A program made the translations under genes and the position numbers. A stretch of DNA of 64,000 bases, taken from positions 4,292-68,291 of the forward strand of contig JAJZAI010000012.1 in NCBI GenBank assembly GCA_021799495.1, in the 5' to 3' direction. Positions 54,581 to 61,279 of the stretch are shown here, piece after piece; within the stretch, counting starts at the first letter, position 1, and each line of letters begins with the position of its first letter. The DNA comes from Deltaproteobacteria bacterium (GTDB taxonomy: Bacteria; Desulfobacterota; Binatia; Binatales; Binataceae). The notes beneath the pieces were generated by a model. That model was not told the DNA's origin and did not search any database. It was given only the letters and a program-made list of their open reading frames with translations.

Positions 54581-56113
54581 TTGCTCGCCAGCGTACTGTC
54601 CAGCGCACTTGCCGGAGTCGACGCCTTTCCGGTCGAAGTCGAAATCGATATCAGCGCCGGAATTCCAGGCTTCCGGATGGTCGGTCTGCCTGACGGTGCC
54701 GTGCGCGAAGCCTTCGACCGCATCAAATCAGCGATCACCAACTCCGGCTTCGAATTTCCCAACCGCAAAATCACGATCAACCTCGCTCCCGCCGACGTTC
54801 GCAAGGAGGGATCGGCGTTCGACCTGCCGATGGCGCTCGGGATTCTCGCGGCCAAGGATGACATCCAGAAGCGCAACCGGTTGCGCGGCTATCTCGTGCT
54901 CGGCGAACTCGCGCTCGACGGCCGGATCAAGGGAATCAAGGGCGCCCTGCCCAGCGCCCTCCTCGCGCGGAACCGGAACCTGGCCGGCGTCGTATTGCCG
55001 CGCGAAAACGCCGCCGAGGCTTCCGTGGTCGGCGAAGCGGTGCGCGTGCTCGGCGTCGAAACCCTGCGCGAGGCGTTCGAGTTTTTCGAGGAACTGCTCG
55101 AGATCCCGCCGACCCACGTCAATCTGAACGAACTGTTCGACGCGGCCAGCCGTTACGACCTCGATTTCAGCGAGGTCAAAGGGCAAGAGCAGGCCAAGCG
55201 CGCGTTAGAAGTCGCCGCCGCCGGCGGCCATAACGTCCTGATGATCGGCCCGCCCGGCTCGGGCAAAACGATGCTCGCGAAGCGCTTGCCGACGATCCTG
55301 CCGGGGATGAGCTTCGAGGAAGCGATCGAAACCACCAAGGTCCACAGCGTCGCTGGCTTGCTCGATGGACGGGCGCTGATCGCGACGCGGCCCTTCCGCG
55401 CACCGCATCATACGATATCGGACGCAGGACTGATCGGCGGCGGCCCGATCCCGCGCCCCGGCGAAGTCAGCTTAGGCCATAACGGCGTTCTCTTTTTGGA
55501 CGAACTGCCGGAATTCCGCAAAAACGTCCTCGAAGTCCTGCGCCAGCCGCTCGAAGACCGCCGCATCACGATCGCCCGCGTGATGGGCACGATGACGTTT
55601 CCGGCCAGCGTGATGATGGTCGCGGCGATGAATCCGTGTCCGTGCGGCTTCTACACCGATTCGCAGCACGAATGCGTCTGTTCGCCGATGATTATCCAGC
55701 GCTATCGCTCGCGCATTTCCGGGCCGCTGCTCGACCGGCTGGATATCCATATTGAAGTGCCGGCGGTGAAGTACAAGGAGCTGGCCGACCGCGGCGCCGG
55801 CGAACCCTCGACCGCGATTCGCGACCGGGTGAATCAGGCCCGCAACCTGCAACTGGAACGGTTTCGCGGCACGCCCTATTTCTGCAACGCGCAGATGGGC
55901 GCGCGCGAATTGCGCGAGCATTGCGCGATCGACGCTTCGGGCGAACGCCTGCTTGAACTAGCGATCAACCGGCTTGGCCTGAGCGCGCGCGCCTACACGC
56001 GCACGCTCAAGGTCGCCCGCACGATCGCCGACCTCGACGGCGGCGGCCCGATTCAGGCGTTCCATCTGAGCGAGGCGATCCAGTACCGCTCCCTCGACAG
56101 GATGGCGATGTGA
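54581..56113 (+). CDS. yifB: YifB/ComM-family Mg-chelatase-like AAA+ ATPase
   Basis: [26 protein letters not shown]-terminus (Lon-protease-like domain). Walker A is [13 protein letters not shown] and Walker B is [11 protein letters not shown]. Confidence 0.9.
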
Positions 56114-56223
56114 GGAAATGTGGCCGAGGTCGTCCTTTATTTTAAGAGCGAAAGCGCTCCGGTCCGTCCTGATCGAAGTGCGAACGATAGCTTATAAGAA
56201 GCCCTTTAAAAATATAAAATGCT

Positions 56224-56251
56224 TTGACAGTCAGCTTGAAACAATGATAAA
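56224..56251 (+). promoter_or_regulatory. Sigma-70-like promoter candidate for the islet genes
   Basis: TTGACA (56224-56229), a 16-nt spacer, then GATAAA (56246-56251), about 10 nt upstream of the 56261 GTG. Confidence 0.3.
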
Positions 56252-56260
56252 CGCCTCGAT

Positions 56261-56632
56261 GTGGCTGATAAGAAATCCATGGAAGCTCGTAAGCTCGAGC
56301 TCCGGTACCAATTTTTATTCCGAATTATTGACTTAGCTTCGCGCACGATTGATCAGGGTATCCCGGCGCTAACAGTGGTCCTAATAGTCTATTTCGGCAT
56401 ATTTCGCACAGCGCACGAATTGGCGAGTAAGACAACCATGGCTGCGTTCGGTATGAGATTATTTGCGGACGCTAAGCCAGATGAGCTAGTCTCTTATCTA
56501 GCGGCAGTGGTCGGATGGCTTTTTGGAATAAACGCGCAACGATTAAGACGGAATACGACGGAGAGGTTGACACGCCGAATTCACGAATTGGAGCATCATA
56601 TAGACCCGACACGAACACCACTAGCGGTTTGA
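56261..56632 (+). CDS. Hypothetical two-TM membrane protein (islet ORF 1)
   Basis: Hydrophobic helices IPALTVVLIVYFGIF and LVSYLAAVVGWLFGI, and a basic/coiled C-terminus RRNTTERLTRRIHELEHH. Start is GTG 56261 or ATG 56279. No motif recognised. Confidence 0.45.
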   Translation: MADKKSMEARKLELRYQFLFRIIDLASRTIDQGIPALTVVLIVYFGIFRTAHELASKTTMAAFGMRLFADAKPDELVSYLAAVVGWLFGINAQRLRRNTTERLTRRIHELEHHIDPTRTPLAV

Positions 56633-56668
56633 CAACACAAGGTCAGACACCAAAAGAGGTTAATTAAC

Positions 56669-57223
56669 GTGGATATCGTGATAGCAGCGCGAATAATTCG
56701 CTTCTGCACGGGAGCTATTTTTGTTTGGGGAGTTTTTTATCTTAGCTTCAGACAATTCTTGCTTGATAATCTTCGACAAAATCTCTTCCAAATCAGGGAT
56801 GATGTCTTCGACTTTGCGGCCGATGGCGGAATTGAATTTAGCGACTTCTGTTATCGTTCGCTTCGAGACGATATCAACAGTCTGCTTTTATTTGCAGATA
56901 AGCTTTCGTTCGGTAGATTAATTTTCGCTCAGGTGGCTCTCAAGAGAAATCCCGAAATCACCAGCCAAATTGAACTATGGTTTAAAAAGATCGATCATCT
57001 CTCCCCATTGGCCCGAAAGACCCTTTCCGAAGCTCGGTTAAGGGTCTGGTGGGAGATAGTTTATTACATGATAAATCGGTCGATCATTTTGTTTCTGTTC
57101 TTCCATATTTTGCGCTTGATCTCGCTTTGGGTGAACAAACCACGAAATCTTTATCAAAGCCTTCCCAATTTCGCTAAACCGTTAGAGGCGCAAGCCCACG
57201 ACGAATACCATCTTGCTGCATAA
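56669..57223 (+). CDS. Hypothetical membrane protein (islet ORF 2)
   Basis: N-terminal TM IIRFCTGAIFVWGVFYLSF and C-terminal TM RSIILFLFFHILRLISLW. It is the longest ORF in the AT-rich segment in any frame. No motif recognised. Confidence 0.5.
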   Translation: MDIVIAARIIRFCTGAIFVWGVFYLSFRQFLLDNLRQNLFQIRDDVFDFAADGGIEFSDFCYRSLRDDINSLLLFADKLSFGRLIFAQVALKRNPEITSQIELWFKKIDHLSPLARKTLSEARLRVWWEIVYYMINRSIILFLFFHILRLISLWVNKPRNLYQSLPNFAKPLEAQAHDEYHLAA

Positions 57224-57420
57224 TCAGCAGGAGCGTTTTATCCAGCTTTGGTGCCATAAACTGCAAAGCGCGCTTGCTTTTGGAACGAGCCACATCGTGA
57301 CCGCAACGGGTATGATGATTGACGAACCGCGCTTGACCGTTGGATCGCCTGCCGTTTTTCCCGAGTCCATGATTTGACTTCAATTTTCAGCTAGCGTTGG
57401 CGCGGCTAGCGGGTGCTGCG

Positions 57421-57449
57421 TTGACATCGGGGGCGGGCGGGTTTACGCT
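57421..57449 (+). promoter_or_regulatory. Sigma-70-like promoter candidate upstream of ffh
   Basis: TTGACA (57421-57426), a 17-nt spacer, then TACGCT (57444-57449), about 90 nt upstream of the ffh ATG. Confidence 0.4.
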
Positions 57450-60721: not shown

Positions 60722-61279
60722 GTGGCTGACCTGCATATCGCGCTCGCGCATTATCCGGTGATCGATCGCACCGGCAAAATCGTCACCTCCGCGATCACCA
60801 GCCTCGATCTGCACGATCTCGCGCGGGCGGCGCGGACCTACGGGGCGAAGGCGTTTTTCGTCATCCATCCCACCCCCGACCAGCGCGCGTTCGCGGCCCG
60901 GGTGCTCGAACACTGGCGGATCGGCCACGGCCGCCAATTCGATTCGCGCCGGCGCGAGGCGCTCGACCTGATTCAAATCGTGCCCGCGTTCGACGACGCG
61001 CTCGCCGCGATCGAAGCGCTGAGCGGGATGCGTCCGCTGGTCGCGTTCACCTCGGCGCGGGCCGAAGGCGGACTGCCCTGGAGCGCGGCGCGCGCGATGC
61101 TTCAGCAGGACGACGGCCCGCCGCTGATGGTGCTGTTCGGAACGGGATTCGGGATGGCGCCGGCGCTGGCCGAGCGCGCGGATCTCACCCTGCCGCCGAT
61201 TCTCGGCGCGGGCGATTACAATCATTTGTCGGTGCGCGCGGCGGCCGGAATAATTCTCGATCGATTGTGCGGGCGATAG
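60722..61279 (+). CDS. Predicted SPOUT-type RNA methyltransferase (Methyltrn_RNA_4-like)
   Basis: HYPVIDRTGKIVTSAITSLDLHDLARAARTYG ... LFGTGFGM ... DYNHLSVRAAAGIILDRL. As I recall, this pattern matches the family commonly found between trmD and rplS. Confidence 0.6.
   Translation: MADLHIALAHYPVIDRTGKIVTSAITSLDLHDLARAARTYGAKAFFVIHPTPDQRAFAARVLEHWRIGHGRQFDSRRREALDLIQIVPAFDDALAAIEALSGMRPLVAFTSARAEGGLPWSAARAMLQQDDGPPLMVLFGTGFGMAPALAERADLTLPPILGAGDYNHLSVRAAAGIILDRLCGR

Follow-up and report, generated by a model that had tools for sequence, protein, structure and literature searches.

A low-GC cassette between yifB and ffh carries a mobile pair of membrane-protein genes, a probable TIR-less relative of the Rst_2TM_1TM_TIR locus of phage AC1

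Between yifB (comM) and ffh, in a 64,000-nucleotide stretch of a Binataceae genome (the window), lies a low-GC cassette with two genes for small membrane proteins, here called ORF1 and ORF2. The pair is a conserved, selected and mobile unit. Since no TIR gene accompanies it and the homology of both proteins to those of phage AC1 is remote, sequence comparison would make it a TIR-less relative of the locus Rst_2TM_1TM_TIR and not a member of it. A role in defence appears likely, and there is an even chance that this mobile pair, standing alone without a TIR protein, works as an abortive-infection switch with the design of a toxin-antitoxin pair. A sequence-only reading of the same DNA had proposed a novel two-gene membrane-acting defence or addiction module made of orphan proteins. 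The module part of that proposal gains from the patchy distribution of the pair, its carriage by prophages, the other occupants of the insertion slot and the homology to AC1; its novelty was put too strongly, as the pair is related to two-thirds of a catalogued system. Nor are the proteins orphans, the ORF2 family comprising 2,774 clusters (50% level) at E≤0.001 and that of ORF1 at least 120 homologues.

Directly after the yifB stop the composition drops, with a G+C content of 0.447 over positions 56114-57223 versus 0.637 genome-wide in the source genome of the window (G000), and the islet is the lowest 1.1-kb stretch of G+C anywhere in that genome. The AT-rich islet and the aberrant codon composition that had been noticed by eye are thus borne out by calculation, GC3 being 0.46-0.48 in the two ORFs versus 0.81-0.84 in yifB and ffh. 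ORF1 (56261-56632) and ORF2 (56669-57223) lie on the forward strand where they had been placed, each with two hydrophobic segments, and each is single-copy in the genome. To the left, yifB/comM (54581-56113, forward strand) is intact, as had been supposed, with its Pfam domains ChlI, Mg_chelatase and Mg_chelatase_C all complete. To the right, and outside the cassette, stands a promoter-like site of the host for ffh (57421-57449, forward strand; TTGACA-17-TACGCT), and relatives carry a TTGACA at the equivalent place upstream of ffh. The limits of the cassette, to which no strand is assigned, are fixed by a second allele in run X3, a contig of which connects 56113 with 57417 through other DNA: the swappable low-GC segment runs from 56114 to 57416, that is from the yifB stop to the -35 of the ffh promoter. 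The start originally given for the islet holds, and its end moves from 57400 to about 57416. At the cassette ends neither an integrase nor an Rfam RNA was found and no flanking repeat stands out, in agreement with what had been seen by eye. A hairpin at 57211-57232, considered as a terminator, was rejected as it is not conserved in L083, the closest intact copy of the cassette. Elsewhere in the window, a 185-aa gene directly after trmD (60722-61279) encodes a product that we take, by eye, to resemble a SPOUT-type RNA methyltransferase.

When the yifB-ffh junction is compared among relatives, as had been suggested, the cassette proves patchy and the contents of the slot differ. Only the flanks are shared, the last part of yifB on one side and the ffh promoter on the other, with about 155 bp to 7.9 kb between them. 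In the three closest species the cargo is low in GC and of defence type; the slot of G007 holds an AIPR protein, that of G012 an NYN protein and that of G002 an AAA_21 ATPase with a partner, and in some sister species there is nothing in the slot. The same cassette occupies the same slot in another sample (L083), where it is 82% identical and its flanks are identical to those of G007 over the short stretches available. In run X3 the second allele, with other DNA in the slot, has a similar depth (22 versus 27), which suggests that slot content differs among close strains within one sample. Named homologues and loci would place the DNA in Candidatus Binataceae, with mine drainage and sediment as the sample types. 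The simplest reading, we infer, is that the cassette would enter the yifB-ffh slot by recombination within the conserved flanks. The analogy that had been drawn with the comM insertion hotspot does not carry over, as AbaR/Tn7-like islands need insertion inside comM, a transposase and a target duplication, whereas here comM is intact, the exchange takes place between flanks that stay conserved and there is no integrase, transposase or target duplication.

Other occupants of the slot deserve mention in their own right. In G002 (L047:1059-2659) the AAA_21 ATPase is followed by a 158-aa protein without a Pfam or PADLOC match, and the two together are a candidate defence system judging by sequence. 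The slot of G006 (L051:926-2552) has three small low-GC genes, likewise without a Pfam or PADLOC match. From the slots of G003, G009 and G020 (L048, L054 and L060) it is evident that the cargo can also have a host-like GC content; such cargo includes a 441-aa lipoprotein-like gene, and the slot of G020 is filled by a 7.9-kb block of mixed genes.

The two genes also travel together outside this slot. Of the 28 distinct loci with DNA, most of them found through ORF2 alone, 26 have an ORF1-family gene, or what is left of one, immediately ahead of ORF2; the exceptions are a Leptospira plasmid locus and L098. In a comparison of 19 sites the G+C content of the pair falls 2-14 points short of that of the flanking DNA, and the pair is present in 11 of 165 genomes of the family and in 0 of the 12 other genomes of the genus. 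P2-like Burkholderia phages carry it in moron positions between integrase and portal, and it is also found in other prophage or tail regions. Patchiness, low GC at many sites and prophage carriage all speak for horizontal acquisition, as had been proposed for the islet. Many copies stand isolated between housekeeping genes rather than in defence islands. The purifying selection by which the proposal of a functional module could be judged is visible in both genes when they are compared with L083, dN/dS being 0.16 for ORF2 and 0.22 for the part of ORF1 upstream of its break. Two loci differ in their surroundings. On the Leptospira interrogans plasmid (L084:3448-4552) a clear ORF2 homologue is preceded by a gene for a DUF2335 protein, a swap of partners; DUF2335 was tried as a relative of ORF1 and gave no match. 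At L080:4729-6821, genes for a HipA-like kinase and a DUF3037 protein are found between the pair and a phage portal gene.

ORF1 encodes a 2TM protein of 124 aa in its present form, with TM1 at about residues 30-47 and TM2 at about residues 76-91, followed by a basic coiled helix. Charge bias predicts that both ends are inside, and a conserved loop motif is predicted to face outward. The structure model is poor (pLDDT 67, pTM 0.31). ORF1 matches phrog_27816 (E 1e-6), no family in Pfam or NCBIfam reached the cut-off for either protein, and the Binatia ORF1 alignment had no match as a query in IMG/VR. LapA_dom is weakly matched over TM2 and the next helix, both in ORF1 and in the 2TM protein of AC1; this and the ABC-permease matches were discarded as reflections of hydrophobic helices.

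Although ORF1 had been taken as a whole gene, it is shortened by a frameshift. DNA alignment with L083 places two extra bases (AC) at about 56615-56616 (forward strand), so that ORF1 stops at 56632 and the remnant of its tail, with the motif S-x-L-T-x-x-G-x-T, is read in another frame at 56617-56667. This tail is conserved: the C-terminus of nearly all full-length homologues reads D-P-x-R-x-S-S-x-L-T-x-x-G-x-T, 90 of 99 family members have the core motif, and 4 of the 8 invariant columns of alignment A5 fall in the tail. Four runs, drawn from two studies, gave contigs without an indel relative to the window, a count to be read with the proviso that three of the four runs may be the window's own source and that contigs drop rare variants; because the same allele recurs in them, an assembly error is unlikely. 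Programmed slippage was dismissed, there being no homopolymer run at the site, as was ATG 56279 as the start, which is TTG in L083 and is replaced in the homologues by a start at the GTG position. With the conserved tail lost, the window's copy is probably inactive.

ORF2 is intact, and its 185-aa product would be a membrane-anchored helical-bundle protein of the 1TM family. Its AlphaFold model is all-helical with a pLDDT of 94, and charge bias predicts the conserved bundle to be inside, the second hydrophobic helix being ambiguous; the C-terminus may lie on either side of the membrane. The fold search that had been recommended was uninformative for this protein: nothing in the PDB matched at E≤0.001, the best VIA Z of 7.8 led to generic helical bundles, and Atlas TM was 0.44 or less, a result that should not be taken as proof of a new fold. 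The best viral fold match, with a TM of 0.58 and an E of 0.02, is PhancyPhin gp28 (KX756439; L096:6412-7008, reverse strand), which is annotated as a 'minor tail protein' although its gene is on the reverse strand and falls within the variable centre of the genome of a cluster N phage. By sequence its resemblance to ORF2 is weak (pairwise E 1e-5), and it is possibly a misannotated lone relative of ORF2.

The C-terminus of ORF2 (57188-57220, forward strand) is ssrA-like and ends in DEYHLAA, compared with NGYALAA at the end of the host tmRNA tag. Of the 144 ORF2 cluster representatives, 30 have AA at the C-terminus and 70 have A as the last residue. The background for AA is 1.2% at internal positions, 4% in long ORFs of the host and 0 of 92 at the ends of the ORF1 family. 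A degron-like trend is also visible at the ends of the E. coli 1TM proteins. Ends of the ssrA type serve as recognition signals for ClpXP, FtsH or Prc.

The signals for expression point to unequal output of the two genes. Upstream of ORF1 is a promoter-like element (56224-56253, forward strand) in which TTGACA (56224-56229) is separated by 18 nt from a -10 preceded by TG (TG-A-TAAACG, 56245-56253), set by comparison with relatives. It had been read as TTGACA-N16-GATAAA; the TTGACA is conserved and stands, while the -10 and the 16-nt spacing give way. The same spacing is seen in L083, L031, L035 and L041, with 6-7 nt to the GTG, and in L044 and L071 the -10 is 5 nt from an ATG; the arrangement is thus kept across six different insertion sites. 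More generally, a TTGAC-17/18-TA shape precedes the ORF1 start by 5-7 nt in seven Binatia-like loci. It was not found in nine further loci searched, and a consensus promoter scan did not flag the site at 56224-56253. As 7 nt separate the end of the -10 from the GTG of ORF1 (56261), the message is probably leaderless. ORF2 has a strong ribosome-binding site (GAGG, 56656-56659) inside the ORF1 tail; a purine-rich GAG/GGA site lies within this tail in 10 of 10 loci inspected. In the loci inspected for gene spacing, the stop of ORF1 and the start of ORF2 overlap or are a few bases apart. Output from a leaderless ORF1 and an ORF2 with a ribosome site should favour ORF2. In run X8, contig 29 matches the window from 56235 on and has 514 other bases before this point; the DNA upstream of the pair has there been replaced from inside the promoter spacer, and the -35 is cut off.

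The closest described system is a 2TM + 1TM + TIR locus from the P2-like phage AC1; cloned whole, it makes E. coli resistant to the phages lambda, LF82_P8 and P2 (Rousset et al., 2022; PMC9122126). Its authors propose TIR signalling with the membrane pair as effector; as the three genes were cloned together and never tested separately in that study (PMC9122126), TIR alone could explain the protection. Literature searches brought up no later work on the AC1 membrane proteins, and one survey reports no Rst_2TM_1TM_TIR in its set of bacterial genomes (10.1101/2024.10.26.620412). Components of the system are represented in PADLOC by the models PDLC02977 and PDLC02978; a search of genomes for the latter brought up no significant match. 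The PADLOC comparison that had been advised gives one match for each ORF, the two matched models being partners. The outcome differs in strength, with an E of 1.7e-5 for ORF2 against 1TM-TIR and of 0.025 for ORF1 against 2TM-TIR, its sole match at E≤1.

For ORF2, 108 of 150 relatives match the same 1TM-TIR model (best 6e-12), the family matches AC1-type 1TM proteins with single-comparison E values of 1e-6 to 3e-5, none of 1,000 shuffles reaches the direct score, and the hhalign probability is 80%. There is good reason to regard ORF2 as a remote homologue of the AC1 1TM protein, as far as sequence comparison can tell. The case for ORF1 is weaker and relies partly on gene order: a pairwise E of 4e-6 over residues 18-123 of 133 against the AC1 2TM protein, and 0, 1 and 6 of 1,000 shuffles reaching the score in three tests, are set against an hhalign probability of 6% or less and 0 of 99 family members recognised by PADLOC at E≤0.001.

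What the pair lacks is the third gene. There is none in the cassette, and the 45 neighbours examined at 16 loci include no TIR; the AC1 TIR domain as a query matched none of the pair loci and nothing in G000, and TIR_2 was absent from G000 (98% complete). PDLC02976, tried as a TIR model, is not TIR. In an AC1-type locus of E. coli D7 (L097:3416-3654), 1TM and TIR are set apart by 240 bp and by a strong terminator hairpin, which suggests two transcription units; the two sides also differ in G+C (0.41 versus 0.36). In a lambdoid prophage of E. coli, an AC1-type pair (62% and 53% identical) occurs without TIR. The window's pair resembles Rst_2TM_1TM_TIR in gene order and protein sizes (124 and 185 aa here versus about 134 and 184) and in the non-polar C-terminus of the second protein. 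It differs in the absence of a TIR gene from its surroundings and from the genome, in the S-x-L-T-x-x-G-x-T tail of the ORF1 family that the AC1 2TM protein does not have, in its chromosomal slot as opposed to a P2 hotspot, and in the frameshift of this copy. That the two membrane proteins form the effector part of a system of TIR signalling, with TIR supplied from elsewhere in the genome, in line with the proposal made for AC1 (PMC9122126) and with the occurrence of the three genes together in 14 E. coli genomes, is very improbable, since those copies are at least 99% identical and of one lineage and neither TIR_2 nor an AC1-like TIR was found in G000, nor any TIR in the pair loci searched.

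Damage to the pair bears on which protein does what. In six damaged loci, a small set in which some breaks may be assembly errors, ORF1 alone is broken in two (the window and L046), both genes in three (L045, L070 and L074), and in L098 ORF2 is broken and ORF1 absent; an intact ORF1 with a broken ORF2 was seen in none of the six. Together with the ssrA-like ends of ORF2 and the probably leaderless ORF1, this one-sided pattern tentatively suggests that ORF1 may be a membrane effector and ORF2 its labile restraining partner. ORF1 would be made sparingly from its leaderless GTG start and would damage the membrane, while ORF2 would be made in excess, be turned over through its C-terminal degron and restrain ORF1. 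Shut-off of host expression by a phage, or a phage protein, would then remove ORF2 and free ORF1.

Protease-labile antitoxins are a feature of type II toxin-antitoxin and abortive-infection pairs. Like these, the genes here form a tightly coupled two-gene operon, and the degron-like end on one partner (in the ORF2 relatives) and one-sided gene loss are further likenesses to type II modules; unlike those, both products are membrane proteins and the putative toxin comes first. Lambda RexAB is a two-gene prophage defence cassette with a membrane protein. Together with the pairs of the actinobacteriophages Sbash, CarolAnn and Butters it belongs to the small prophage pairs with membrane components for which lysogen defence is reported; the one link seen to the present pair is the weak resemblance of ORF2, in fold and sequence, to gp28 of the cluster N phage PhancyPhin.

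Other arrangements of the two proteins would account for part of the data. They might form an entry- or superinfection-exclusion complex that interferes with the injection of DNA or the timing of lysis and does not kill the cell, with the degron merely tuning the level of the complex. Two small, translationally coupled membrane proteins in moron slots of temperate phages, including slots beside lysis and tail genes, would suit such a complex, as would the outward-facing loop motif of ORF1. We nevertheless consider it unlikely, as most conserved residues of the two proteins map to the side predicted to be cytoplasmic, the family is found across very different envelopes and the damage is one-sided. 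Selfish addiction, or a non-defence accessory membrane complex with the AC1 phenotype due to TIR, would fit the many isolated chromosomal copies with few defence neighbours, their frequent decay and the fact that the AC1 genes were never tested separately (PMC9122126); it is quite unlikely in view of the repeated carriage in prophage accessory slots and of a chromosomal slot shared with defence-type genes. A reversal of polarity, with ORF2 as an effector whose level is held down by proteolysis and rises once ClpXP, FtsH or Prc is inhibited by a phage, and with ORF1 as sensor, chaperone or co-subunit, would agree equally well with the enrichment of degrons. In its favour, ORF2 pairs with the unrelated DUF2335 in Leptospira and so may be the constant core. 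The persistence of an intact ORF2 after the break of ORF1 in the window and L046 tells against it if ORF1 were a needed antidote, though not if it were a needed activator, and we rate this reversal as improbable.

Returning to the abortive-infection switch with ORF1 as effector, its furthest extension is speculative and on balance doubtful: the 2TM + 1TM pair could be a widespread, self-sufficient anti-phage system of thousands of sequence clusters, miscatalogued as an accessory of TIR, and would act as an all-membrane dead-man switch in which a leaderless-translated effector is held by a partner with an ssrA-mimic degron and is triggered by host shut-off or altered protease activity. If the pair does defend alone, detection rules that need all three genes would miss it, and the TIR-messenger mechanism proposed for AC1 would need revising. 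The frameshifted allele of the window, beside the intact allele of L083, provides a natural negative control, and the yifB-ffh junction offers a compact site that can be mined for defence-type genes in a lineage without cultured members.
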